From an uncultured archaeon (GTDB taxonomy: Archaea > Asgardarchaeota > Heimdallarchaeia > Heimdallarchaeales > Heimdallarchaeaceae): 18,911 bases of DNA. This document shows, in pieces, positions 468 to 18,911 of the stretch (position 1 is the first letter of the stretch; every line of letters starts with the position of its first letter). The notes under the pieces are model-generated. The model was given only the letters and a program-made list of their open reading frames with translations. It was not told where the DNA came from and searched no databases. The DNA is taken from positions 56,246 to 75,156 of the forward strand of contig CAZJUB010000007.1 in the NCBI GenBank assembly GCA_964549075.1, read 5' to 3'. The position numbers and the translations under genes were made by a program.

Positions 468-1553
468 ATGAGTGACTTTGACTTGGATTGGAATAAATTT
501 GTAGGATTTAGTTTATTTACATTAGATGAAGATATGGTTTTTGATAAAGTTATTAACACTAAAACAGCTTTTTCTACAGTATTTCAAATCATTGATACAA
601 GTACAAAAACTAGGGAAGAGTTGAAAAAATCACAATCCATCTCCTTAATTAATGAAGTTTTCCGAGTGGATTATCATTTGTACTATAATATCGTACTTGC
701 ATGTATGTTTCTTCCTGATACTGAAGAAAATTTAGCTGGACGAATTATTCAAATCATAAAAAATAAGCTTCACGAACAACTTAAAGATTATGGTACTATT
801 GATAAAATGGAACCGAGATCACAGACAGCTTTAATTAAACGATTAGGCAGTTTGATTTCTGAAAGAGCTGCAAGTCAGATCAAATATGACTATTTTCCAG
901 CTAAGAAACCAAAAGTTGTAGAATCTGAGCCAATAACTCCAAAGGTTGAACAGCCTACTTCTACACAAAAAACTGAAACAATCACTTCAGAATCCACATA
1001 TCCTCCTACACAATCTGAAGCAGTTTCCTCGTACTCTCCAACTACTACAACACAACCTGTAGGTAGTTCAGATTCTGGTGGAGTTGAGGACCTACTTGAG
1101 CATATTGGACAAAAGAAAGGTCCACATACAACTTTTATTGAAAATAATAAAAAAGTTGAACTTACTCAGCAACTTCTTGAAGATACAAAACGAACCTCAA
1201 TAGAACGTGTTCTATCTTCAGTAATAAAGGGATTATCTTCAAAAACTGGTGTTTGTTTTGTTTTCACAGGAGACAAAGGAGCTTTAGAAACTATTACTCA
1301 TGGTATGTCTGAAAAACATGCAGAATTTGTCTTAGGAATACTTTCTAAATATCCTGAAGTTGTAAAACAAACTCTTGAAGCACCGGGAGATGATAAGACT
1401 CTCGATGCAGGTGATGGTGTTGTTATATTAGAAGAAACAGAAGGTGGAATGTTAGTTAGTATAACGAAAAATCGAGAAGAAATACCTATTATATCTAAAA
1501 GAATGAAACTTGTAAAAACAATGATTGGAGAATTTCTGAAATCATCTTTCTAA
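468..1553 (+). CDS. Putative longin-like + roadblock-like two-domain protein with Ser/Thr/Pro-rich linker
   Basis: 361-aa ORF with GAGGA RBS at 456-460. The N-terminal pattern (VGFSLFTLD...FRVDYHLYYNIVLACMF...helix) is longin-like. The C-terminal ~120 aa align by eye with the ORFs at 2264 and 3003. The fold is inferred. Confidence 0.65.
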   Translation: MSDFDLDWNKFVGFSLFTLDEDMVFDKVINTKTAFSTVFQIIDTSTKTREELKKSQSISLINEVFRVDYHLYYNIVLACMFLPDTEENLAGRIIQIIKNKLHEQLKDYGTIDKMEPRSQTALIKRLGSLISERAASQIKYDYFPAKKPKVVESEPITPKVEQPTSTQKTETITSESTYPPTQSEAVSSYSPTTTTQPVGSSDSGGVEDLLEHIGQKKGPHTTFIENNKKVELTQQLLEDTKRTSIERVLSSVIKGLSSKTGVCFVFTGDKGALETITHGMSEKHAEFVLGILSKYPEVVKQTLEAPGDDKTLDAGDGVVILEETEGGMLVSITKNREEIPIISKRMKLVKTMIGEFLKSSF

Positions 1554-1588
1554 TGAACTTATGACCACCTTAGAATTGATTAAAGGTT

Positions 1589-2254
1589 ATGGGGACGAGA
1601 ACAATTTGGAATAAAAATCAGACTAAAAGAGTAATTATTACCAAAGAAATCCGTAGCAGTGTGAAAGACACTTTTTCTTTATTTCAGTTTTTAGAAAACA
1701 ACTTAAAACATGAAGAGATTGAAGTAAACACAATAGACAATACAAAATTTACATTTGTCAAGAAAATGGGTAGTAAAAAAATAAATATAGAAATTAGAGA
1801 TACGGATAGAGAAAATTTCTTGGAAATTAATGCATATAATTCAAAATTGAATTATCTAAATGGAGTTTATAATTGGTCAAATAAGCAGATATTTGGTCTC
1901 AAATACAGTTTATGGATAATTTTGATAATTGTTGCAATCTCAATTATTCCGTTAGCTGTATTGTTAGCAATTCAAGAGACCATATCTTCAGAAGCTCAAA
2001 CCGCACTCAGAGTTGGAGGAATAGTGTTGATTTCAATTGGAGGAGGAGTTTTTGTTTTGTTCTTGATATTTACGCAATTATCTTCAGGAAGACAAATTAA
2101 GCTACGAGATAATGTGAGTAATTTTGTTCAGATAATAATAAATTTCATCGAAAATTATCGAGAGGATTCAAAGGGAAAAAAAGTATGTTGGAATTGTTAT
2201 AAAGAAATTACAAATGAAAGTTCAAAATGCCCACATTGTGAGACACAATTATAA
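1589..2254 (+). CDS. Membrane protein with two TM helices and a C-terminal zinc ribbon
   Basis: Hydrophobic LWIILIIVAISIIPLAVLLAI and VGGIVLISIGGGVFVLFLIF segments; C-terminal CWNC-x10-CPHC. Confidence 0.8.
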   Translation: MGTRTIWNKNQTKRVIITKEIRSSVKDTFSLFQFLENNLKHEEIEVNTIDNTKFTFVKKMGSKKINIEIRDTDRENFLEINAYNSKLNYLNGVYNWSNKQIFGLKYSLWIILIIVAISIIPLAVLLAIQETISSEAQTALRVGGIVLISIGGGVFVLFLIFTQLSSGRQIKLRDNVSNFVQIIINFIENYREDSKGKKVCWNCYKEITNESSKCPHCETQL

Positions 2255-2263
2255 ACGCATGAT

Positions 2264-2845
2264 TTAAAGCTCGTCTAATAGCAAAGTGTTCTTTGTTACA
2301 ACATTTTGAACATGTTTTAATCTTCTAGATAATTCATCAACATCTTCCTGATTTTGTGTGATACCTATTAGGTAGTTGTCTTTTTGGCAATTTTCAAGTA
2401 CAACATAACCAATTCCAGTATCTAATACCTTAACTTCTTCATCAGACCCAAGCAAATCGTTAATAACAGGAGGATATTTTTGGAAAATTTCAAGAATCTT
2501 TATTACAACTTCCTTACTTAATGGACCTCGTATTATAGCTCTCTTATCATCACTTTCTGGATGTGGTACTAATGAAGCAGCTGATAACGAATGTAAATCA
2601 CCAGATATGCTATCCAATAGTGCATCAATTGTAACTCTTATAGCTTCTTGCACCTCATCAGGAGATGATGTTTGATTAAGAAATTCTCTTAGATATTGAC
2701 CTGATTTAAGTTTTCTCTTTGAGATATTCAAAGTTTCATATGCAACTTCTTCCATCTCAACAAAAATATCCTTTTGTGAGGGTTTTCTTTTTCTTGAAGT
2801 AATTTTGGTTGAAGGAGATTCTTTAGAAGGTTCTTTAGTATTCAT
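2264..2845 (-). CDS. Roadblock-like domain protein, paralog of the flanking 468 and 3003 proteins
   Basis: The ATG at 2845 follows a GAGGA RBS and is preferred over the TTG at 2857. ILEIFQKYPPVI...EEVKVLDTGIGYVVLEN...LIGITQNQEDV matches the neighbours. Confidence 0.7.
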   Translation of the reverse strand: MNTKEPSKESPSTKITSRKRKPSQKDIFVEMEEVAYETLNISKRKLKSGQYLREFLNQTSSPDEVQEAIRVTIDALLDSISGDLHSLSAASLVPHPESDDKRAIIRGPLSKEVVIKILEIFQKYPPVINDLLGSDEEVKVLDTGIGYVVLENCQKDNYLIGITQNQEDVDELSRRLKHVQNVVTKNTLLLDEL

Positions 2846-3002
2846 TGCTATCCTCAAAAATATTTACTTCATAAAGCCCTAAAAATATTTCCTTACTATT
2901 AATGCAAATGTAGAAACACTTGAATATGATTTATGATTTTAATGGACAGTTGAGATATCTTTATTAGCAAATACTAATATAATAAATACTAGTTGAGGTC
3001 AA

Positions 3003-3968
3003 ATGCCTTTTCCTAGAACTAACATCAATCCGTTGGTAGCTGTTATAATCTATGATTTAAAAGGGAATAATATTTTTGAATTAGAAAATGCTAAAAATGA
3101 GGTTGAAAAGGCTGAAATTCACAGTTATTTTATCCATCCTATTGAATTCTATCAGTGGGTTAGACGTTATAACGAGATAACAATTTTCAGAGGTAAATTT
3201 AGAGCCACATATATTACTTTTATTGATTTGACTCTTCTCTTTGTATCAAGAGTAGAAAATATAGCTGCTGAAATACGTCCTGTTATATTAAATTATGTAA
3301 AAGTATTAAGTCAAGAAATTTTAAGGAATCTAACAACTCGGCAAAATGAAGATTTGCTTGTCAAAACCTGCGGATATTCATATGACCAAAATATAAATCA
3401 ATTCCAGAATCAAATTGATAAGATTTATTCTCGATTAGGAATCGAAAGAATAGAACTAGAACCGCTCACTCTAGAAATTTCAGAAGAAGAGACCAAACTA
3501 TCAAAAGCTGAATCAAAAGTTGAAGTATTTGAAGAAAGTCGTCCGTTCGAATCAGTGCCAAAAATCCAAGCTAGTGAGATGACACAAGAAATACTTGATG
3601 AAGCTAATAAAAGAGCTATCACATCTTTATTATTTTCTTCTATAAGAGGTTGTGAATCTCCAGCAGCTGCAGCATACATCTATACTAAAATTGATGGAGC
3701 AATAGGAGAATTATATGCTGGTAATTTAGAGGAAAGAAAAATAATTTACGTTTTAGAAACAATAACTCAATTTCCAAGAGTAATTTATGAAATGATCAAT
3801 TCAGATGACGAAATAAAAGCTTTGAATGCTGAAGTGGTTCAAATTATAGTTGAAGAGAGTGCTGATGGAAAAATCCTTGTTGGGATGACAACAAATGTGA
3901 ATGACGTAATAAATGTAGGCTATAAATTCAAAATCATTAAACACATTCTAAATACTATGGGATTTTAG
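3003..3968 (+). CDS. Putative longin-like + roadblock-like two-domain protein
   Basis: 321 aa with GAGGT RBS. N-terminal VAVIIYDLKGNNIFE resembles the first longin beta-hairpin. C-terminal VLETITQFPRVI...DEIKALNA...IIVEE...LVGMTTNVNDV is paralogous to the 468 and 2264 proteins. Confidence 0.7.
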   Translation: MPFPRTNINPLVAVIIYDLKGNNIFELENAKNEVEKAEIHSYFIHPIEFYQWVRRYNEITIFRGKFRATYITFIDLTLLFVSRVENIAAEIRPVILNYVKVLSQEILRNLTTRQNEDLLVKTCGYSYDQNINQFQNQIDKIYSRLGIERIELEPLTLEISEEETKLSKAESKVEVFEESRPFESVPKIQASEMTQEILDEANKRAITSLLFSSIRGCESPAAAAYIYTKIDGAIGELYAGNLEERKIIYVLETITQFPRVIYEMINSDDEIKALNAEVVQIIVEESADGKILVGMTTNVNDVINVGYKFKIIKHILNTMGF

Positions 3969-4021: not shown

Positions 4022-5068
4022 ATGGACGAAGGTAAACTAGATATTGAGCTTCTTCACGAAATCTTAAGTAAAAAAGGTTCTAAAAATGAAGGAGTTATAA
4101 AATCAGGAGAAGTTGGGTTAGATGTTGCTACCTTAGATATCTCTGCAGCTCGAAAGAAAGCTCAGGAATTTTACAATACCACTTCAGAAACATATCTTAT
4201 CGTGAAATCTGATCCAGTTACCTTTCCAACCTCAGAACCTGGAAGATATGCAGTTATTGTAAATGCAAATGACGTAGTATGTAGTGGAGCGCTTCCTTAT
4301 GGTTTTTTAGCGACTATTATTGTTCCTCCCAAAACAAAGTTTGAAGAAATTAAAGAAATACAAAATCAAATCCATCAACAATGTCATGACTTAGGTATAA
4401 GTTTATTAGGAGGGCACACAGAAATTTCTAAATCAGTTAGAGATATTATTATTTCAGGACATATGATTGGTTTTGTTCCAGAAGATTTCTATGTTACTAA
4501 TGAATTATCTGAAGGTGAGTCAATTATAATAGTGGGTGAAATTGGTGCTGAAGGTATAGGTATTCTAATATCTGAAGCTGACGGATACATTCAAAAGATT
4601 TTAGATCCAGCAGAACTAGAAAATGGAATTTTAATTGGCAAAAGATTAAGTTTAGGGGACATTGCCAATATTATTAATAAAAAATTTCGCCCTTCCCTTA
4701 TTCATGATGCTACAGAAGGGGGATTATATGGTGCATTAAGCGAGATATTATATAATAGAGATGTTGGAATTCAGCTTTTTCAAGAACCTTCTATCAATCC
4801 AATAATGAAAAAACTCTCAGACTGGTTGAGCTTTGATCCTTTTAGGATTATATCCTCGGGTTTAATTATATTTTCTGTAGCTAAGAATAAAACCAATGAT
4901 TTTCTTAATTTCCTTAAAGAATATCAAATTCCAGGTTCATTAATAGGTTCTGTTACTAATGAAAAAGGAATATTAAGACTTGGAGATAACATACTCGAAA
5001 AACCAATAAGCGATGAAATTATCATCGCTCTTGAAAATCTTGAAAGGCTAAAGAATGAAAAAGTATAA
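4022..5068 (+). CDS. AIR synthase-related (PurM-like/HypE-like superfamily) protein
   Basis: Family motifs KSDPVT, AVIVNANDVVCSGA, LLGGHTE and HDATEGGL, plus the C-terminal ISSG. Confidence 0.88.
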   Translation: MDEGKLDIELLHEILSKKGSKNEGVIKSGEVGLDVATLDISAARKKAQEFYNTTSETYLIVKSDPVTFPTSEPGRYAVIVNANDVVCSGALPYGFLATIIVPPKTKFEEIKEIQNQIHQQCHDLGISLLGGHTEISKSVRDIIISGHMIGFVPEDFYVTNELSEGESIIIVGEIGAEGIGILISEADGYIQKILDPAELENGILIGKRLSLGDIANIINKKFRPSLIHDATEGGLYGALSEILYNRDVGIQLFQEPSINPIMKKLSDWLSFDPFRIISSGLIIFSVAKNKTNDFLNFLKEYQIPGSLIGSVTNEKGILRLGDNILEKPISDEIIIALENLERLKNEKV

Positions 5069-5744
5069 CTCAAAGTCTCAATATTCTGACAATCATGATA
5101 TTTGGGGAGCGGAAGCTTTTCTCTATAAAGAGAGATGGTTTGGATACAATGTAATTAAAAAAATAAGATCTCCAAAAAAATACAGAATAGATGAAATCGA
5201 TTTGGAACTTAGAACCAGTAGAACAATTACAGAATCAAGATTAATGATAGCAGCTAAGAAATTAGGAGTACATACTCCAACAATTTTCGAAATCGATCTT
5301 GAAAATACAAGTATAGTAATGGAAGACATTGATGGAATTAGCGTAAAAGAATGGTTGAACGAAACATCTGACTTAGAGAAACAGAAGCAGTTTGTTAAGT
5401 TAATTGGTGAAAATGTTGGGATTCTACACACAAATAATATCATTCATGGGGATCTAACTACAAGCAATATGATTAAAAAAAAGGAGAAATTACATTTCAT
5501 TGATTTTGGATTAGGAAAATTTTCACAGGCAATTGAAGATAAAGCTGTGGACATATTATTAATGAAAAAATGTTTTACAAGCACCCACACATATTGTGAA
5601 AAGGAATTTTTCTTTTCATTTCAAGAAGGATATTTATCTAGTATGCAACAAGCTAATAGTATTTTTAGAAGAGCAGCAAAAGTAGAAGCTAGGGCTAGAC
5701 ATTTAAAGGAAAATCAAATTATTAACGATTATCTTATCTCGTGA
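5055..5744 (+). CDS. bud32: KEOPS complex kinase/ATPase Bud32 (Kae1-associated)
   Basis: GAEA loop, KIRSPKKYR, RTITESR, HGDLTTSN catalytic loop, DFGLG, EDKAVD and STH motifs. Confidence 0.95.
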   Translation: MKKYNSKSQYSDNHDIWGAEAFLYKERWFGYNVIKKIRSPKKYRIDEIDLELRTSRTITESRLMIAAKKLGVHTPTIFEIDLENTSIVMEDIDGISVKEWLNETSDLEKQKQFVKLIGENVGILHTNNIIHGDLTTSNMIKKKEKLHFIDFGLGKFSQAIEDKAVDILLMKKCFTSTHTYCEKEFFFSFQEGYLSSMQQANSIFRRAAKVEARARHLKENQIINDYLIS

Positions 5745-7029
5745 TAGCAGGATATTTTAATAATTTCTGTCCTGTTTCCCAAGCTGTCTTAGCATAGATT
5801 TCTTGATTCGACCAGTTACCTTCAATTTTTCCTTGAGAACTTAATTTTCCCAATATTTTCCTTATTGATGGATAAACAGGTTTGAAAGGAGTACTTTCAA
5901 GTTTTGTGCCAGGCAATGGCATAAAAACATGAGCTCGAATCACAGTTTCTTTTTTTGTCAATTCTTTAATAACTTTGATAGTCTTTAATTCATCTTCCTT
6001 TGTAGCTTTAGGAAGTCCTATAATGATATCTACTATTGGTATAAAACCTGTTTCTAATAGAACATTAATTGCTTCAATACCTTCTTCTACTGTATGTCCT
6101 CTATGAATTTCTCGCAATACATCATTACTTCCAGATTGCAATCCTATTGATATTCGTGAATTTGAGAGAAATGGTTTAATATCTTTCATGAGTTCTAAAG
6201 ATACAGTTTCTGGACGAACTTCACCAGGAAATGTTCCAAAATAAACACTTCGTATCCCTTCAATTGTACGTATAGATGATAGTAACTTTACTATTGCTTC
6301 ATGATTAACTTCATGTGGTTTTGACGACATATATCCAAATGAATTAGGAGTTATGAAACGTATATCATTAAGTTTCCTTTTTGCCATCCATTTAATTGTA
6401 TTAAGAATTATTTCAGGTGACCTGTGTCTAGTTCGATGTTCAAATAAGGTTGGCACTTGGCAAAATGTACAACCAAATGCACATCCCCTTGATATTTCTA
6501 AAGGAGGAAACAGACCTCTTGTTTGTGACATAAAGGGATAATCATCAAGATTAATAGGTTCAGGTTTAGTTGTTATATTAACCTGATCTTTACCTTCAAG
6601 ATATGCCATCCCTGGAGTTTTATATTCATCATCTTCTAAAATTAATTTTTCAAGGAAAAGAGATAATGAGTATTCAGCTTCTCCAATAAAAGCAAAATCA
6701 AATCCGGTCTTTAAAGTTGTTTGAGGACTTCCTGATGCATGACTTCCTCCCGCAATAAATATGATCCGATTTAATTCTGAAGGAAGAAGTGCTTTGTAAA
6801 TCTTTGCCATTCTATCATAAATTTCAGGTAGTTGAGCTGTTCGAAAAGAAAATCCTACAACTAAACGGTCATATTTTTTTAAGAGAGACTTTAATACAAT
6901 ATGATCTATATTTTCTTCTAATATCACAACTACATCATTTAGATTAATATCTGCATCAATTGTAGCGATAAGGGGTGTAAGACTATAGAAATTTTTCTTA
7001 GAAAAATCAAATACTATTGCAAGAGACAT
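5734..7029 (-). CDS. B12-binding domain radical SAM protein (MJ_1487/TIGR04013-like)
   Basis: N-terminal B12-binding-type VGFSF...IAGGSHAS...GEAE; EISRGCAFGCTFCQ (CxxxCxxC); DIRFITPNSFGY; GTFPGEVRPE; FMPLPGT. The ATG at 7029 follows a GGTGA RBS (the ORF track starts at TTG 7041). Confidence 0.9.
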   Translation of the reverse strand: MSLAIVFDFSKKNFYSLTPLIATIDADINLNDVVVILEENIDHIVLKSLLKKYDRLVVGFSFRTAQLPEIYDRMAKIYKALLPSELNRIIFIAGGSHASGSPQTTLKTGFDFAFIGEAEYSLSLFLEKLILEDDEYKTPGMAYLEGKDQVNITTKPEPINLDDYPFMSQTRGLFPPLEISRGCAFGCTFCQVPTLFEHRTRHRSPEIILNTIKWMAKRKLNDIRFITPNSFGYMSSKPHEVNHEAIVKLLSSIRTIEGIRSVYFGTFPGEVRPETVSLELMKDIKPFLSNSRISIGLQSGSNDVLREIHRGHTVEEGIEAINVLLETGFIPIVDIIIGLPKATKEDELKTIKVIKELTKKETVIRAHVFMPLPGTKLESTPFKPVYPSIRKILGKLSSQGKIEGNWSNQEIYAKTAWETGQKLLKYPAITR

Positions 7030-7042
7030 AGATTTCACCAAA

Positions 7043-8038
7043 TTATCTCCAAGTGACTGTCACTTCTTCAGGTCTAAAATGCTGATCCACGACAGTATCT
7101 ACCATTTTAGCTCTTATACCTGAATTATACATCAATATACCGAGCCAAGCAATCATAACACCATTATCTAGAGCTAAATTTGCATCTAGACCTTTGAAAG
7201 TAGCATTATGAGATATTGCCATTTCAGAGAGCATTTCTTTAAGACGAGTATTTGCAGCTACACCACCACATACAAGAATTTCCTTTTTTCTTGTATGAGC
7301 TAAAGCGCGTTCTGTAACCTCAACTAGCATTGAGAAAACTGTCTCTTGAAGACTATATGCTAAATCAGGTAATTCATATTTCTTTGATTGAAATAACTTT
7401 GTAATGTGAGTTAAAATACCAGAAAATGAAACATCCATCCCTTTTATAACATAAGGAATATTGATATAATTAGAACCTCTAAGAGCTTCATCTTCTATTA
7501 CTTTACCCATTGGTTGTTCCTTATCGCTTAATCCCGCATTCCTACCAAAAACATCCAAGCAGTTTCCTACAGGAATATCAAGTGTTTCTCCAAAAACGCG
7601 ATATCGGCCTTCAGAGTATGCAATAACCTGAGTATTACCACCAGATACATAAAGCACGACAGGATCTGCCAATTGACCTTCTAAACGTCCAATTTCAACA
7701 TGGGCTATTGGATGATTAACTGGCATAATGGGTTTATTTAAAGCTAAAGCAAGAGTCCTAGCAGCGATAACACCTATTCTCAAACATGGGCCTAAACCTG
7801 GACCTTTCGTAAATGAAATTAAGTCTATATCATCAGGTTGAACACCAGATTCTTGAAATGCTCTATTAATTACCTTAGGCATGTTTATACTATGAAATTC
7901 AGAAGCTTCTCTAGGATGTATTCCACTACCAAAAGGAGGTTTATAGGTCATTCGTATGTTTGACAGGATTTTGCCATCACTATCGATTATACCAACACCT
8001 AGCTTATCTGCAGAACTTTCGATTCCTAGAGAGATCAT
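7043..8038 (-). CDS. kae1: KEOPS N6-L-threonylcarbamoyladenine (t6A) synthase Kae1
   Basis: LGIESSA, GIHPREA, GPGLGPCL, VNHPIAHVEIG (metal-binding HxxxH), LYVSGGNTQ, ETLDIPVGNCLD, GGVAAN and DNGVMIA motifs; archaeal C-terminus FRPEEVTVTWR. Confidence 0.97.
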   Translation of the reverse strand: MISLGIESSADKLGVGIIDSDGKILSNIRMTYKPPFGSGIHPREASEFHSINMPKVINRAFQESGVQPDDIDLISFTKGPGLGPCLRIGVIAARTLALALNKPIMPVNHPIAHVEIGRLEGQLADPVVLYVSGGNTQVIAYSEGRYRVFGETLDIPVGNCLDVFGRNAGLSDKEQPMGKVIEDEALRGSNYINIPYVIKGMDVSFSGILTHITKLFQSKKYELPDLAYSLQETVFSMLVEVTERALAHTRKKEILVCGGVAANTRLKEMLSEMAISHNATFKGLDANLALDNGVMIAWLGILMYNSGIRAKMVDTVVDQHFRPEEVTVTWR

Positions 8039-8116: not shown

Positions 8117-9034
8117 ATGTATCTAATATCAATGTCTAATCTCATTCAACCTTTATATCCGTGGAGTAAACCAGAATCGTCTATTAAAAACCGAAATCAG
8201 GGATTAGGAAGTATAATTTCTTTGAATTTCATTTTTTTATATTTTTTATTATTCATCTATGTATCTTCAGGAAAGATATATCCTGCTTTAAGACTTGCAG
8301 ACATAAATTTACTCGGACATCTAAGTGCTCTTGTAATTGGTTTGAGATATTTGGTTTTTAATTGGTGGCTGAGTATAGTTCTTTTTTTCGCTTCTTTAGC
8401 AATAACAATTACCTTTACTTCTTTAATAACTAAGACAAAACCATCTTTATTCAAAACTTATATTGAATATATAAAACTTGACACTAAAAATCTGAAAAAA
8501 AACGAGGTAGTTAAACAAATTTTTATTGACCTTTTAGAAATTGCTGGATTTTCAATTATTAGTTTTTTATTCCTTGAATTAATTACATTTGCTATCTCTT
8601 CTCTTGCAACTGCTATCATTCTTCCAGCTATTGTAAATATCACTGAAGTCTCATTAAGTTATGTCTTTCTTACGATATTGATATCCCACATACTATTTTT
8701 TCCTCTGTTAATTTTCTTTTATAATAGAATGATAATGAAAAAATTAGTAAAAACGGATAAGATTAATCTGAAAAGGTTCCTTACTGAAGATGGAGAGATT
8801 GATATGGATAAATGGAAAAATGAAACTTGGGGAAAAAAACCTTATACATTTGATTGGGAGGAGGAGGTTTTTCCAATTACATGCTTTTCATGTGGTTCTA
8901 TCATATCCAGTGATTTAACAGTATGCCCTATTTGTGATGCTGATTTAATTAAAGAGATAGAAATTATCGAAGATGAGACAACAGATGATTCTGGAAGAGA
9001 AAATTCTGAAGAAAGCGAAAATAATAGTGATTAA
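8117..9034 (+). CDS. Multi-pass membrane protein with C-terminal zinc ribbon and acidic tail
   Basis: About 4-5 hydrophobic segments; CFSC-x10-CPIC; C-terminal EDETTDDSGRENSEESENNSD. Confidence 0.8.
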   Translation: MYLISMSNLIQPLYPWSKPESSIKNRNQGLGSIISLNFIFLYFLLFIYVSSGKIYPALRLADINLLGHLSALVIGLRYLVFNWWLSIVLFFASLAITITFTSLITKTKPSLFKTYIEYIKLDTKNLKKNEVVKQIFIDLLEIAGFSIISFLFLELITFAISSLATAIILPAIVNITEVSLSYVFLTILISHILFFPLLIFFYNRMIMKKLVKTDKINLKRFLTEDGEIDMDKWKNETWGKKPYTFDWEEEVFPITCFSCGSIISSDLTVCPICDADLIKEIEIIEDETTDDSGRENSEESENNSD

Positions 9035-9458: not shown

Positions 9459-10352
9459 CTATTGAGAGGAAATTAATGAAACTATTCTATCAACCACTAA
9501 TTTTCTCACTATATTGGTAGTATTCTCTCCTTTTCTTGATTCAACAAGAGGTAATTTTCTAATTAATGTCTCATTTACTAAATGTTCTTGGATTTTCCTA
9601 ATATTATCAAAATTAGATAATAATTCTTCTTTTTCTTTCGTGTATTGTGAACTTAAATTTTCTCTGTGTAAATCAGGATCAGGCACACATATTGTGATAT
9701 AAATTACATTTGGTTTTGATAATAATGCTTCATCAAAAAACGCAGGTAGAAGATGCTCACCTTCAATAACAATAGAAACATTTTCCTTTTCAGCTCGGGA
9801 CAATACTGCGTCCACTCCTAAATTCACATATTTAGAATGGTTTTCAAAACCGAGTATAACTTCATCAAATCTGCTACTATAAATAGGTCTTAAGCTTTTA
9901 TAGGCTTGATATGACTTTGAATGGAGTTCTGGGACAATATCTTTAGAAAGAATTCTTCTCAATATATCTGCTACAACATCAGTTCCTATAACATGCTGAA
10001 TTCCAAGATCACCTGCTATTTTCCTTGATAAAGTACTTTTTCCAGCACCTATTGCCCCCGCTATCAATATCCAGATTGGGATTCTAGAATCTCTCCATTT
10101 TTCAATCTTCAAATATTGTTCTGCTAATTTTTCATTATAGGCTTTAGACAAATGTGTTGAGATAATTTCATCAATTTTCGATTTTGGAACAACTTCTTGA
10201 TTTAAATTTAGTATATCATTATAAACATCTATAAGAAACTCATAGCCTTCTGTGAAGGAGATACCAAATAAAGTTAATTTATTAGCAAGAATACCTCTAG
10301 ATATCAATTGTTTGGCCCTTCCTTGTATGAAAACATGAGGTTCTTTGTCCAT
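9459..10352 (-). CDS. 2-phosphoglycerate kinase-like P-loop kinase, paralog A
   Basis: ATP-cone-like SRGILANKL; Walker A GAIGAGKST; IGTD; PELHSKSYQAY; IVIEGEHL; NFDNIRKIQEHL. Confidence 0.85.
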   Translation of the reverse strand: MDKEPHVFIQGRAKQLISRGILANKLTLFGISFTEGYEFLIDVYNDILNLNQEVVPKSKIDEIISTHLSKAYNEKLAEQYLKIEKWRDSRIPIWILIAGAIGAGKSTLSRKIAGDLGIQHVIGTDVVADILRRILSKDIVPELHSKSYQAYKSLRPIYSSRFDEVILGFENHSKYVNLGVDAVLSRAEKENVSIVIEGEHLLPAFFDEALLSKPNVIYITICVPDPDLHRENLSSQYTKEKEELLSNFDNIRKIQEHLVNETLIRKLPLVESRKGENTTNIVRKLVVDRIVSLISSQ

Positions 10353-10444: not shown

Positions 10445-11368
10445 ATGAGTAATTACCGCTCTGAAAAATATCTTCGTATAAAGTCCACTTCAGATAACTA
10501 TGAGTATTTCTCAAAAGGGATACTAGCTGAATCACTTTTTTCTATAGGTATGAGTTCTGATCAAGCTCAAGGTATTGCTAACCAAGTCGCAGATAAAGTA
10601 AGTACTTTAACCGAAACTCAAACAAAGAAGAAACTTGTTCAGATTATTACATCAGCTATTCAAGAAGTAGATAAAAGATTAGCAGAAAGATATGTAGTCT
10701 TTGAAGGAGATCACGAATACAAACCTATTATAATTCTTCTAGCTGGTGTTCCAGGAATTGGTAAAAGTACTTTAGCATCAGATCTATCAGATAGATTAGA
10801 AATTACAAATATTATAGGAACCGATATGATTAGAGAGATTCTAAGAAAAACAATATCTTCAAAATTGATACCTGAAATTCATAGCAGCAGTTATGAAGCC
10901 TATAAATATTTAAAACAAAATCTAAATCCTATATTGCGTCGTTCTATAGTTGGATATGAGGAACAGAGTAGACATATTGTCGTTGGCGTTGAAGCTGCAA
11001 TTCAATCTGCTTTATATTCAAGAGAAAATACAATAATAGAAGGAGTTCATTTAGCTCCAAATATTCTCAAACCAGAAATTTTGAACGAAAACCATGTGGT
11101 TATGATTTTACTTTGCCTTGAAGATGAATCAGAACATATTAAAAGAATAAAATCAAGAGGTTCTCAAATTGAAAAGAGATCTTCCGATAGATATATTGAA
11201 GCATTTCCTGAAATCAGAAACATTCAAACATATTTAGTAGAAGAAGCTTCCAAAGCAGGAGTACCTATAATCGAAACTTCTGATAGTTCAAAAGCAATCA
11301 AGAAGATGATGGATATTATCTGGGACAAAATTTTACTTCTAGATCGAAAAAAAAGGTCAGAGAACTAG
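10445..11368 (+). CDS. pgk2: 2-phosphoglycerate kinase-like P-loop kinase, paralog B (closer to the canonical motifs)
   Basis: FSKGILAESL ATP-cone motif; PIIILLAGVPGIGKST; IGTDMIREILR; PEIHSSSYEAY; IIEGVHL; FPEIRNIQTYL. Confidence 0.8.
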   Translation: MSNYRSEKYLRIKSTSDNYEYFSKGILAESLFSIGMSSDQAQGIANQVADKVSTLTETQTKKKLVQIITSAIQEVDKRLAERYVVFEGDHEYKPIIILLAGVPGIGKSTLASDLSDRLEITNIIGTDMIREILRKTISSKLIPEIHSSSYEAYKYLKQNLNPILRRSIVGYEEQSRHIVVGVEAAIQSALYSRENTIIEGVHLAPNILKPEILNENHVVMILLCLEDESEHIKRIKSRGSQIEKRSSDRYIEAFPEIRNIQTYLVEEASKAGVPIIETSDSSKAIKKMMDIIWDKILLLDRKKRSEN

Positions 11369-15371: not shown

Positions 15372-18300
15372 TTATCTCAATCTCTTTCTTAGAAGGAATT
15401 GTTCATCTGATAAGTTGAAAAGAGTAGAAAGTGTTTCTTCAATAGGTGTCTTATTAAAGTATTCTAGTGCAACACTGATAGTTACTTCTTTGTAATCTTT
15501 GATAAACTTAAAGATTCTTTGGCTCAAAGGACTTAATTTAGGAACTTCCTTCTCTTTCATTGGATTAATTGACAAAGGATGAAGAGTCCAAACAAACAAT
15601 TCTTCACTTAATGTATCCATAATCTGATGTGAGTTCTTTTGGAATTCATCTGTAATTCCATTCCAGTCATGAAGTACTGTTTGGAATCTTTTTTCAAACC
15701 AGACAACAAAATTCGATAATCCAGTTTCTACATCAACAGAGACATCAGAAGTACTAAACAGATATGCACAAATGCAATCTTTAGCTGAACTTGATACAAC
15801 AAACTGTCCATAATCTAATTTTCTTACTGTTCCAGCTTGTCCACCACTAATCTCACTTCCCATACCTGCTACAGCTTGTAGAAATCCTGTAACCAAAGAA
15901 GAATCAACAGTTATTTCTCCTCCAAGATCCCATTCGTAAATTGGTAATCCCGTTTCTTGGTGTACAATGATTACTTTTCTCATTGCTAAAACACTTGTAA
16001 GTATCTTGGAAATTTTATCAAGATATCTTCTCTTAGTTGCCTTTTTCTTCTGCTTCTTAGGGCGAATTACAGCAAAGTAAATTGTGAGAACGATGAAAAT
16101 AACTGCTAAAGCAGCCAATCCTCCAACCATGTAATAAGTATATTCTCTAAACAAGAATGAAAGTAAAGAAAGGAATGCAGCTGAAGCTGTAGCAAAAGTT
16201 AAACTCTCTTCAGTTGTTTTGGAGTTTAGAACATATTGATTCGCAGTACTTGGGAGATATTCAGCATGATAACTTATTCCTGTTACCTGCCATGGGATTT
16301 CTATAGCACCACTTTCACCAGCATATATACCTGCAGAACCTGATAGGATAATAGTTTCGTTATATTCTTCAGTATGACCATCCTTGAAATAAAATGTATA
16401 ATATACTCTTACAGAATCTCCATTTGGATTTGGAGCTAGATGTATAGGATAGTTTCCTTGAAGTGGGAAGAGAATTTGGGTAGTATTTTCTATTATTACT
16501 CTAAATTGAAAAGTATCTAGTTGTCTCAACTCTCCTACAGTTTCTACTGCCATATCGTAATCTACAGGCGGATAGAAACTCAGTTGAATAATAATAGTCT
16601 TAGTAACATAACCATATTCCTCAAAAGTTAATTCAATGATACATATTGTTCCAACAGTAACGGCTGTATTTGGATTAAAAGTAACTTGAATATAGTCAAC
16701 ACCTACTGTAGCATAACTGATAAGATCAAAGTAATCATTGATATCAAGAGAACTATTAGCTAATGCGAATTCTGCTGTTACTGTTGCAGTTAAAATACTA
16801 GCATTTCCTGCTATACCATCCTGGTATTCAAATAATATTGGAATATCCTCGCTTGCATAGTCAGTAACTTCAGTTTCTCCATAAGCGTCTAGATAAGTCG
16901 TACGCTCATTTACAGTGATGAAAATTTGTAGCATCTGAGGAGCGTAACCTGGATCAATCATGATAATGTTTAGATAGAAGTAACCTAAAGTTCCTATAGG
17001 ATCAATAGTGATAATTATTGTATCACCAAGGCTGGAATTAGTAAAAGTGACTGATATATTACCCACAATTGTAATATTGTCAGGTTGGGGGATATATTCT
17101 ATCAAAGTTGCATCCCAGTATAGTAATCCTACAGTTACTCCTTGATTATAATATATATCAATATCAGGAGAATAACCAATATCAAAACCTGCATCTGTAG
17201 CTTTAGATATAACTATAAATTCTAAAGTTATTGAAGCATTTGCATAACCATTCTTTCCCAACGTTATAGTTATTGATAGTGCATTCGAAGAAGCATCATT
17301 GTTAATAAAGGTAAAATTATATCTTCCAGCACTAATCGGAACCAAGCTAACAAAAGAACAACCACTTGAATTCCAAGTAAAATCTTTTGTAACAGCATCA
17401 GTAATTAATTGAAGATGATCTATATCATTGAACATAAGTACTACAGTGACTTCATATCCCACATAAGTAATATTCCAGTCAGACTCCAGAAAAGATTCTG
17501 ATATATTCACTAGTTCTGTATTTATGATTACTACTTCTAAATCTCCAAGAACAAAATCAATCTGAGACTCATAATTATTTAGAGTTACAGTTATAGAGAT
17601 TTGAATTGCTGTTACAGCATCATTATTGTTTGTTACAGTTAGTTTATAGCCTTCACCATATGCTGTACAATTAAGATTTATATTAGAAACGTTTGCTAAA
17701 GGTGTTATCACTGCTCCAGAAAGATTCAGACCATGAGTTGTATCATAATATCTGAAATAAAATACTGCATCATGATAAACCTGAATAGTTGTAGGTGCAG
17801 TATCAATTTGTATTTCTGTTTCTGCAGCTAAAATCTCAAACGAATAAACATCAGAAACATAGGAATGTGTATAATTTGCTTGGTAATCTCCTAATAAGAT
17901 TTCAATATAAACATCGTACCAACCAATATCTAAATTGTTTGTTGAGGTACTAATATCTAATACCCATTCTTCTGGAGCTCCAGCATAAGTAAAATTGTAA
18001 TCTTTTGGCGATTCTAGGAAATAGGAGTAACCATCATATAAGGTAACATTCAAATCAGAAATGGTCATAGCATCAGTTAGATTTTTATCTCCTGTTACAT
18101 CATACAATGCTAAGTTGAAAACAACATTATCAGTGTAATACGTGGAAGTTGAAGTATATTCTGGTACAAGTGCTAACTCATAAAAAACTGAAACATTGAA
18201 AGAAACTGATTGTTCTTCCAGAAATGCTCCTGTTAATTGAACATCAACAATATAGTCACCTACGGCAAAATCAACTAAAATTGAAGAATTATAGAAAGGT

Positions 18301-18911
18301 GCATAATCATCAAAGTTTCCATTTTTGTTCCACGTTGCGTTTGAAACGGTATACGACACTTGAGCATCAGGAATTAGTTCTCCTACAGATGTAAAGAATG
18401 GTTCACTAACATTATAATAATAACCTTGTACTATAAAAGAGTCATCTCCTTTTCTTGTGATATCAGTTTGAACCCATGTATCACTATTTGGGATTATTTC
18501 CCACTCAAAATCTGAATCAGTCTGTGATTGGACAATTATTCGTTGGGAGTAATAACCAATCTCAGTTCCATTCTTCCAAGTAACTTCAGCTGTCCAGAAA
18601 CCTGGTTTGTCTGATCCATATACTGAAGGATCAAAAGTAATATACTCGTTAAAATAACCTCCAGCAATATTAGAGATATCAGTTATAGTATATGATGATG
18701 TATCAGTATAACTTAAATTGCCACTAACAGATTTGACAGAGACTATATTTCCATCAGGGTCATACAATGTATAATCGAGTGTTCCTGTTGTATCATTAGT
18801 AAGAATTCCTACATCATATTTTACATCTGCTTCTACATATACAGAAGAACCTTCATGACCATATGCATCGACTGTATCAGTATCCCAATAACCTAAATAA
18901 AATCTTTCAGT
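15372..18911 (-). CDS. 5'-truncated very large single-pass membrane protein: Ig-like/beta-sandwich glycosylated ectodomain, TM helix, cytoplasmic longin-like domain, winged-helix-like C-terminus
   Basis: The frame stays open from the TTG at 18767 to the window edge (TERFYLGYWDTDTVDAYG...). It has more than 20 N-x-S/T sequons, a TM helix MVGGLAALAVIFIVLTIYFAVI followed by RPKKQKKK, and a cytoplasmic VIIVHQETGLPIY...DSSLVTGFLQAV motif. Confidence 0.88.
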   Translation of the reverse strand, partial: TERFYLGYWDTDTVDAYGHEGSSVYVEADVKYDVGILTNDTTGTLDYTLYDPDGNIVSVKSVSGNLSYTDTSSYTITDISNIAGGYFNEYITFDPSVYGSDKPGFWTAEVTWKNGTEIGYYSQRIIVQSQTDSDFEWEIIPNSDTWVQTDITRKGDDSFIVQGYYYNVSEPFFTSVGELIPDAQVSYTVSNATWNKNGNFDDYAPFYNSSILVDFAVGDYIVDVQLTGAFLEEQSVSFNVSVFYELALVPEYTSTSTYYTDNVVFNLALYDVTGDKNLTDAMTISDLNVTLYDGYSYFLESPKDYNFTYAGAPEEWVLDISTSTNNLDIGWYDVYIEILLGDYQANYTHSYVSDVYSFEILAAETEIQIDTAPTTIQVYHDAVFYFRYYDTTHGLNLSGAVITPLANVSNINLNCTAYGEGYKLTVTNNNDAVTAIQISITVTLNNYESQIDFVLGDLEVVIINTELVNISESFLESDWNITYVGYEVTVVLMFNDIDHLQLITDAVTKDFTWNSSGCSFVSLVPISAGRYNFTFINNDASSNALSITITLGKNGYANASITLEFIVISKATDAGFDIGYSPDIDIYYNQGVTVGLLYWDATLIEYIPQPDNITIVGNISVTFTNSSLGDTIIITIDPIGTLGYFYLNIIMIDPGYAPQMLQIFITVNERTTYLDAYGETEVTDYASEDIPILFEYQDGIAGNASILTATVTAEFALANSSLDINDYFDLISYATVGVDYIQVTFNPNTAVTVGTICIIELTFEEYGYVTKTIIIQLSFYPPVDYDMAVETVGELRQLDTFQFRVIIENTTQILFPLQGNYPIHLAPNPNGDSVRVYYTFYFKDGHTEEYNETIILSGSAGIYAGESGAIEIPWQVTGISYHAEYLPSTANQYVLNSKTTEESLTFATASAAFLSLLSFLFREYTYYMVGGLAALAVIFIVLTIYFAVIRPKKQKKKATKRRYLDKISKILTSVLAMRKVIIVHQETGLPIYEWDLGGEITVDSSLVTGFLQAVAGMGSEISGGQAGTVRKLDYGQFVVSSSAKDCICAYLFSTSDVSVDVETGLSNFVVWFEKRFQTVLHDWNGITDEFQKNSHQIMDTLSEELFVWTLHPLSINPMKEKEVPKLSPLSQRIFKFIKDYKEVTISVALEYFNKTPIEETLSTLFNLSDEQFLLRKRLR

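Follow-up and report, generated by a model that had tools for sequence, protein, structure and literature searches.

The radical S-adenosylmethionine (SAM) gene that lies between kae1 and bud32 in an 18,911-nucleotide stretch of archaeal DNA (the window) may encode a tRNA-modifying methylase. The reaction tentatively proposed for its product is methylation of the threonyl Cγ of the universal modification N6-threonylcarbamoyladenosine at position 37 (t6A37) on tRNA, giving N6-hydroxynorvalylcarbamoyladenosine (hn6A). The wider claim, that the proteins of its family (TIGR04013) are the missing hn6A synthase and C-methylate the t6A37 threonyl side chain while it is on the tRNA, is more doubtful. 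The candidate joins the right chemistry, a distribution that tracks the known producers and, in one archaeal lineage, a position in the kae1 operon. What has been observed is that the protein belongs to the family and has its fold and cluster motif, and that the gene shows operon-like spacing, synteny across the clade and the phyletic pattern; the proposal sets out from these points, and the substrate is inferred. An earlier note on this DNA had suggested a t6A-hypermodifying methylase; its gene identities, spacing and family assignment have held up, whereas the neighbourhood goes back to a single event and the function stays a proposal. Compared with what was first supposed, the phyletic argument is stronger and the neighbourhood argument weaker.

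Layout of the locus

The window is taken from contig C7 (positions 56246-75156) of a 3.2-Mb Asgard metagenome-assembled genome (MAG) with a completeness of 89.7%. The GC content comes to about 31%, and relatives of the locus carry the label Heimdallarchaeota. The features on which the argument rests are the following.

7043..8038, minus strand: kae1, KEOPS N6-threonylcarbamoyladenine synthase (TIGR03722, 450 bits against a cut-off of 375; Pfam TsaD, 264 bits)
5734..7041 (TTG start) or 5734..7029 (ATG start), minus strand: radical SAM gene with B12-binding domain, TIGR04013 (MJ_1487 family; TIGR04013, 400.1 bits; Pfam Radical_SAM, 81 bits)
5055..5744, plus strand: bud32, KEOPS kinase/ATPase, convergent to the radical SAM gene (TIGR03724, 207.9 bits against a cut-off of 125)
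7035..7039, minus strand: GGTGA, a Shine-Dalgarno-like word within the 13-nt spacer between kae1 and the radical SAM gene (base-by-base reading)
5734..5744, no strand assigned: 11-bp stretch shared by the radical SAM gene and bud32 at their 3' ends (from the stop codons read and the open reading frame coordinates)

Kae1 and Bud32 both exceed the cut-offs of their equivalog hidden Markov models (HMMs) and belong to the KEOPS core. With scores above cut-off for all three genes, the identities and the TIGR04013 assignment given in the earlier note are borne out. The kae1 stop, read base by base, is TAA at 7045-7043. Candidate starts of the radical SAM gene are TTG 7041, GTG 7038 and ATG 7029. The last of these is the likely start, with the other two as alternatives. 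It lies exactly 13 nt downstream of the kae1 stop, matching the distance of about 13 nt on the same strand that had been noted, and 5 nt past GGTGA 7039-7035; the ESM Atlas entry for the protein opens at residue 5, which corresponds to this ATG. Judging from the sequence, GGTGA would work as the ribosome-binding site. At the other end, the stop codons of the radical SAM gene (5734-5736) and bud32 (5742-5744) reproduce the previously described 11-bp convergent overlap. In the Heimdall-group family of the window the radical SAM gene is probably co-transcribed with kae1. Scans for sigma-70-type promoters and for terminators gave results at or below the shuffled expectation, with models that are not applicable to archaea.

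The radical SAM protein and its relatives

Counted from TTG 7041, the radical SAM protein has 435 amino acids. Its match to TIGR04013 (B12_SAM_MJ_1487) covers profile positions 1-382 of 382 (cut-off 251 bits, E 8e-120). The PF04055 Radical_SAM score compares with a threshold of 29.5 bits, and the PF02310 B12-binding domain reaches 30.4 bits, slightly under its gathering score of 32.1. The protein contains three cysteines only, C187, C191 and C194, which form a CxxxCxxC motif and are invariant in 60 of 60 aligned TIGR04013 members; a GG-x-H motif at 98-101 is likewise conserved in the family. An AlphaFold2 model was built from the 60-member alignment (predicted local distance difference test 96.0, predicted template-modelling (TM) score 0.92), and Foldseek matches MgmA, CysS, OxsB, TsrM and TokK both to its N-terminal alpha/beta domain and to its fold as a whole. 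The top structural match is MgmA 9ccb (E 1.5e-22, TM 0.68-0.71), followed by an MtaB model, CysS, OxsB, MiaB, TsrM and TokK, and the family profile retrieves the same set of enzymes from PDB sequences, with the addition of 4Q37. The radical SAM core is nearest to the tRNA- and protein-modifying MiaB/MtaB/RimO/MgmA group, and the ESM Atlas returned generic B12/radical SAM clusters only. As modelled, the protein has the fold of a class B (cobalamin-dependent) radical SAM enzyme, with putative cobalamin use and methyl transfer. It falls in a divergent clade, with 33-41% identity to all members outside its own family, while other TIGR04013 members reach up to 58% identity across domains.

The family itself bears little annotation. 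NCBIfam types TIGR04013 as 'hypoth_equivalog', and NCBI product names are generic. A 2026 review counts 4Q37, the only family-like structure, with the enzymes whose transformations are other or unknown, and it groups OxsB, TsrM, TokK and QCMT as one structural class (PMC12931638; this and all other PMC-numbered papers are cited from excerpts). The structure 4Q37 comprises a 128-residue N-terminal domain only, which the family profile matches over positions 6-127 (E 7e-21). Methanocaldococcus jannaschii MJ1487 belongs to the same NCBIfam family as the window protein. The MjCyc paper calls it BzaE-like, on 29% identity alone (PMC11742838), and the literature searched on TIGR04013 and MJ1487 yielded no other published function. 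This agrees with the statement in the earlier note that the MJ_1487-like family has no assigned function.

Among characterised enzymes, MgmA/QCMT, the glutamine C-methyltransferase of methyl-coenzyme M reductase (MCR; TIGR04014, 9CCB), is the best PDB match by family profile (E 4e-38) as well as by fold. Both proteins have an N-terminal Rossmann cobalamin-type domain, a radical SAM core and a CxxxCxxC motif followed by R-x-R-S. However, the identity in the Foldseek alignment is 19%, and the TIGR04014 score of 100.4 bits fails the cut-off of 360; identification of the window protein as MgmA was rejected on this score. MgmA is tied to MCR-bearing methanogens, whereas TIGR04013 occurs in Asgards, Bathyarchaeia, Desulfurococcales and many bacteria.

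The methylthiotransferases MiaB, MtaB, e-MtaB and RimO possess a related radical SAM core (TIGR00089, 83.5 bits), with MiaB and MtaB models ranking high in Foldseek. MtaB and e-MtaB act on the nucleoside proposed here, t6A/hn6A37. Enzymes of this group hold an auxiliary cluster on three cysteines of an N-terminal UPF0004 domain and end in a TRAM domain. The window protein differs from them in having no auxiliary-cluster cysteines beside its three and no match to the TRAM domain. These differences, together with TIGR00089 and TIGR01578 scores (the latter 41.8-42.8 bits) below cut-offs of 251 and 314.7, led to the rejection of a methylthiotransferase assignment.

The N-terminal cobalamin domains of CysS (E 8e-16) and TokK (E 2e-14) are matched by the profile, and TokK/ThnK and CysS match the fold with query-normalised TM scores of about 0.61-0.64 at 16-17% identity. 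Unlike the window protein, these enzymes are larger (about 625-680 amino acids) and have additional domains at the C-terminus, and their substrates are small molecules or carrier-bound. TokK/ThnK and CysS build ethyl from methyl groups, and this chemistry fits a conversion of threonyl to hydroxynorvalyl. The enzymes that form m6t6A (TrmO), ct6A (TcdA) and ms2t6A (MtaB) modify some of the ANN-decoding tRNAs once t6A is in place. They belong to unrelated families with other chemistry, and none of them adds carbon to the amino-acid side chain.

Distribution of the family and of hn6A

The TIGR04013 HMM was applied at its cut-off to 14 named control genomes. Only three pass, Thermotoga maritima, M. 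jannaschii and Methanosarcina acetivorans, all of them reported carriers of hn6A. The family was not found in the other 11, which include Haloferax volcanii, Sulfolobus acidocaldarius, Escherichia coli, Bacillus subtilis and Bacteroides thetaiotaomicron. In PMC6313347, T. maritima, where hn6A was first found, and Thermodesulfobacterium commune are the only eubacteria known to contain it; the modification is also reported there from psychrophilic archaea, with 2-methylthio-hn6A (ms2hn6A) and methyl-hn6A in Stetteria and methyl-hn6A in Methanopyrus kandleri. The presence of t6A, hn6A and ms2hn6A in M. acetivorans is confirmed in PMC10702137, which cites M. jannaschii with hn6A and ms2hn6A. Larger samples of genomes gave the following counts for the family.

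Thermodesulfobacterium genus (centred on Ca. T. syntrophicum): 17 of 22 genomes
Class containing this genus: 30 of 63 genomes
Phylum containing this genus, largely anaerobic: 39 of 301 genomes
Methanosarcinaceae: 121 of 124 genomes
Asgard genomes sampled: 229 of 301
Class of the window itself: 67 of 83 genomes

Cultured T. thermophilum DSM 1276 and T. hveragerdense DSM 12571 are among the matches listed, and Desulfurococcales contribute at least four MAG loci. Methanococcoides burtonii presumably belongs to the Methanosarcinaceae and Stetteria to the Desulfurococcales. The earlier note had allowed for hn6A producers that lack the family. This was not the case for the three named producers that could be tested, all of which are positive, and most genomes of Thermodesulfobacterium and nearly all of Methanosarcinaceae carry it as well.

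The hn6A pathway and the proposed reaction

Both hn6A and ms2hn6A were reportedly described in 1992. According to Swinehart et al. (PMC7430679), the t6A systems of E. coli and T. maritima both make hn6A from supplied hydroxynorvaline, although hn6A does not occur in E. coli in vivo, and TsaC2 of T. maritima shows a roughly fourfold preference for threonine. The t6A enzymes of Pyrococcus abyssi also accept hydroxynorvaline (PMC3561968). Since both bacterial Tsa systems make hn6A, the difference between producer and non-producer does not lie in the Tsa enzymes; because those of a non-producer make hn6A as readily, a separate genetic determinant must exist. The pathway of hn6A is given as unknown in a 2018 review (PMC6313347), as is the origin of hydroxynorvaline in 2020 (PMC7430679) and 2023 (PMC10702137). 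In the literature searched on hn6A and hydroxynorvaline, also in combination with radical SAM or cobalamin, no hn6A-forming enzyme was found, and the earlier statement that none is established thus stands. Free hydroxynorvaline is a substrate of threonyl-tRNA synthetase (ThrRS) that requires editing (PMC13206607), and methylation after transfer to tRNA is therefore favoured.

The substrate of the proposed enzyme would be t6A37 on ANN-decoding tRNAs, which would receive one methyl group on the terminal (gamma) carbon of the threonyl moiety. Conversion of threonyl to hydroxynorvalyl extends a methyl to an ethyl group at an unactivated carbon, a reaction of the kind carried out by class B radical SAM methylases. 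In the putative mechanism, the [4Fe-4S] cluster held by CxxxCxxC would cleave SAM to a 5'-deoxyadenosyl radical, which would take a hydrogen atom from the threonyl CH3. The carbon radical would then receive CH3 from methylcobalamin in the N-terminal Rossmann domain, and re-methylation of the cob(I)alamin would draw on a second SAM. The proposal does not need binding of the radical SAM protein to Kae1. The family is basic (median isoelectric point (pI) 8.8, with pI >8 in 50 of 60 members), which is faintly in keeping with an RNA substrate, as nucleic-acid binders are often basic.

No e-MtaB (TIGR01578) above the cut-off was found in the window's genome at its stated completeness, the sole match being the TIGR04013 gene itself. 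If hn6A is made in this organism, its conversion to ms2hn6A probably does not follow.

Reach and origin of the kae1 linkage

The gene order of the window is constant in its own GTDB family. In 15 of 15 loci the divergently oriented membrane gene is followed by kae1 and the radical SAM gene on one strand, with bud32 and an AIRS-like gene on the other, convergent to them. These loci are L001, L002, L034-L043 and L130-L132, where the identical rows L001 and L132 are counted once; in L043 the contig ends before bud32. They represent at least four genera, with radical SAM identities of 52-65%, and the 13-nt spacer with its internal GGTGA is retained across at least four genera. Within this lineage the arrangement is not due to chance.

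A quick maximum-likelihood analysis of 80 members gathers the linked genes in one clade with a Shimodaira-Hasegawa-like approximate likelihood ratio test (SH-aLRT) support of 100 and a stem of 0.56. This clade is sister to family f5 with a support of 98, and bacteria and archaea are intermixed in the remainder of the tree. In 2 of 2 loci of f5, bud32 comes immediately after kae1 and has the same orientation; in family f2 (2 loci) and f6 (1 locus) the 4 kb around kae1 contained no bud32. Because f5 has kae1 directly followed by bud32, the window locus goes back to a rearrangement of the kae1-bud32 operon, by which the radical SAM gene came into the slot behind kae1, once.

A genome of the window's genus (G193) holds a second TIGR04013 copy (locus L069) on a 3.2-kb contig, C104. 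This copy shares 36% identity with the kae1-linked gene and is of a type similar to that of family f6. It could be a paralogue or a binning contamination.

Evidence against a tRNA substrate

A number of results weigh against the reading as a t6A37 methylase, and one concerns the extent of the linkage. It was absent from all 17 loci of sister families of the same class (six in f2, six in f5, four in f6 and one in f7). It was equally absent from the 30 best-scoring further Asgard loci, viewed over ±1.5 kb, and from 70 other named archaeal and bacterial loci, viewed over ±4 kb. The Asgards among these 70 belong to the Loki, Thor, Hod, Hermod, Njord and Odin groups, and the others to Bathyarchaeia, Desulfurococcales, Methanosarcinaceae, Methanocella, Micrarchaeia, Woesearchaeota and about 20 bacterial lineages. 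A further 89 loci, many of them on contigs already covered, gave no case either. Locus L003, a partial match of 25% identity in a Roseivirgaceae MAG, was excluded from all counts as a non-member. The earlier note had considered that the linkage might be unique to this genome. It is not, being shared by at least four genera, but it has a single origin in a single clade and is absent elsewhere among the loci surveyed. The linkage to kae1 is one evolutionary event. The neighbourhood consequently gives weak functional evidence, because the linkage has been kept but arose once, in one family.

The neighbours of the gene in other lineages point in other directions. In Methanosarcinaceae, the archaeal mevalonate-pathway genes for AcnX (10 loci) and a UbiD-like protein (8 loci) lie upstream on the same strand; in L084, L091 and other loci they are found about 940-3420 upstream of the radical SAM gene. 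This association is lineage-specific and points away from tRNA. Loki-type Asgards have neighbours encoding FGase-like (18), GNAT (17), HhH-GPD with winged helix (16) and TatD (10) proteins. No recurrent bacterial partner was found among 90 flanking open reading frames (ORFs) of 25 loci. These bacterial loci hold one case each of lysS, a TtuA-like gene and ileS, which is about the chance level, and bacterial operon partners were set aside as a clue. The individual cases are an Anaerolineae MAG, in which a gene for a TtuA-like tRNA sulfurtransferase (L046, 1243-2163) stops 2 nt before the radical SAM gene, and a Thermodesulfovibrio MAG, in which ileS-lspA (L086, 702-3943) lies directly upstream of it.

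The phyletic pattern also admits another explanation. The three positive controls are strict anaerobes, and three of the four anaerobic controls are positive, B. thetaiotaomicron being the negative one. The pattern could reflect anaerobiosis or B12 use. H. volcanii and S. acidocaldarius are not known to contain hn6A, and the value of these two negatives depends on that. The producers tested by name were T. maritima, M. jannaschii and M. acetivorans.

As for the protein, no RNA-binding domain such as TRAM has a Pfam match in it, and the unactivated sp3 carbon methylated by its closest characterised relative, MgmA, is that of a protein. Finally, the published view is that hn6A arises via the t6A pathway from hydroxynorvaline (PMC7430679), and a 2026 review ascribes it to the specificity of TsaC/TsaD.

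Alternative substrates

Next in plausibility, though on the whole unlikely, is that the enzyme, as a class B radical SAM methylase, acts on an unrelated macromolecule, most simply a protein residue as in MgmA/QCMT, and that the adjacency of its gene to kae1 is a by-product of one local rearrangement in the ancestor of the window's GTDB family. The sequence and structure matches to MgmA fit this, and TIGR04014 is the second-best NCBIfam match. So do the single origin of the linkage and its absence from the other lineages surveyed; the kae1-bud32 order of f5 shows that a rearrangement took place, and rearrangements can juxtapose unrelated genes. The TIGR04014 score nevertheless places the protein outside MgmA proper, the family occurs in non-methanogens and in bacteria without MCR, and no candidate protein substrate is encoded beside the gene in the surveyed lineages. 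A protein substrate would also leave unexplained why the family is present in just those two bacterial lineages from which hn6A is known.

It is quite improbable that the substrate is a small cofactor or a membrane lipid, whether isoprenoid or not, a possibility that includes the MjCyc proposal of a BzaE-like 5,6-dimethylbenzimidazole synthase. T. maritima and Thermodesulfobacterium are classic ether-lipid bacteria, which would suit a lipid substrate. We know of no archaeal isoprenoid lipids in the bacteria that carry the family, which speaks against one. The position of the gene downstream of the UbiD-like and AcnX genes would also agree with a role in lipid synthesis, but mevalonate neighbours are confined to Methanosarcinaceae. 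Lipid radical SAM enzymes such as glycerol dialkyl glycerol tetraether synthase have auxiliary-cluster cysteines, and no such cysteines exist in a protein with three in all. For a cofactor, cobA and BtuF-like neighbours were seen once each. No Bza model was present in the best 25 of 44 NCBIfam matches, from a library whose Bza content was not seen, and ThiC-like bza neighbours were missing from the neighbour clusters of the surveyed loci. The MjCyc assignment is itself computational (PMC11742838).

The least probable alternative, and a very unlikely one, is that the enzyme makes free 3-hydroxynorvaline, or methylates threonylcarbamoyl-AMP, upstream of Sua5 and KEOPS, which would then install hn6A: it shares the phyletic evidence of the tRNA methylase in full and draws on the acceptance of hydroxynorvaline by the t6A enzymes of E. 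coli, T. maritima (PMC7430679) and P. abyssi (PMC3561968), with its metabolic origin given as unknown, but a free pool would be costly given the mis-activation and editing by ThrRS (PMC13206607), TsaC2 of T. maritima favours threonine, no amino-acid metabolism gene recurs as a neighbour and, as a minor point, the family is basic.

Implications

If the proposed t6A37 methylase activity is correct, a function would be assigned to a family present in most of the Asgard genomes sampled, and cobalamin radical SAM chemistry would extend to tRNA. To our knowledge, no class B radical SAM enzyme acts on tRNA and no carbon extension of an RNA-attached amino acid is known, so both would be firsts. Iterative action of the enzyme could moreover explain the methyl-hn6A of M. 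kandleri and Stetteria. The question becomes testable by one knockout, and M. acetivorans offers both genetic tools and an hn6A assay (PMC10702137). Should the proposal be wrong, the family would still be among the most widespread uncharacterised B12 radical SAM groups.

Other genes of the window

Two further genes flank the kae1 locus.

4022..5068, plus strand: PurM-superfamily gene (AIRS, distantly HypE-like; Pfam AIRS and AIRS_C), overlapping the bud32 start by 14 nt
8117..9034, plus strand: multi-pass hydrophobic protein with C-terminal zinc-ribbon-like CxxC...CxxC, divergent from kae1 (weak DZR_2 and Zn_ribbon_3 matches under cut-off)

The PurM-superfamily gene is syntenic across the loci of the window's own GTDB family (f1). 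HypE proteins are the top PDB matches of its product (E 5e-15), but it scores 91.5 bits with the hypE model, far under the cut-off of 251.6, and has no C-terminal cysteine. HypE acts on a carbamoyl group supplied by HypF, which contains Sua5- and Kae1-like domains. By analogy, a role of the 4022-5068 product on a carbamoyl-type group is conceivable. Its use as a second independent link was rejected: two Bathyarchaeota loci have an AIRS-domain neighbour, which at only 24% identity is a different gene. The hydrophobic-protein gene at 8117-9034 is a conserved flank of the locus, with tblastn identities of 28-59% in the syntenic loci.

Two divergent paralogues, at 9459-10352 (minus strand) and 10445-11368 (plus strand), encode 2-phosphoglycerate kinase-like P-loop proteins with scores of 223.7 and 258.1 bits, both under the equivalog cut-off of 343. 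The genes at 468-1553 (plus strand), 2264-2857 (minus strand) and 3003-3968 (plus strand) encode a common C-terminal domain of about 115 amino acids (26-30% identity, E 3e-12 and 2e-11), for which Pfam gave no significant match and one sub-threshold match only. By eye, the C-terminus of the 1131-amino-acid protein at 15372-18767 resembles this domain, which may represent a lineage-specific paralogous domain family.

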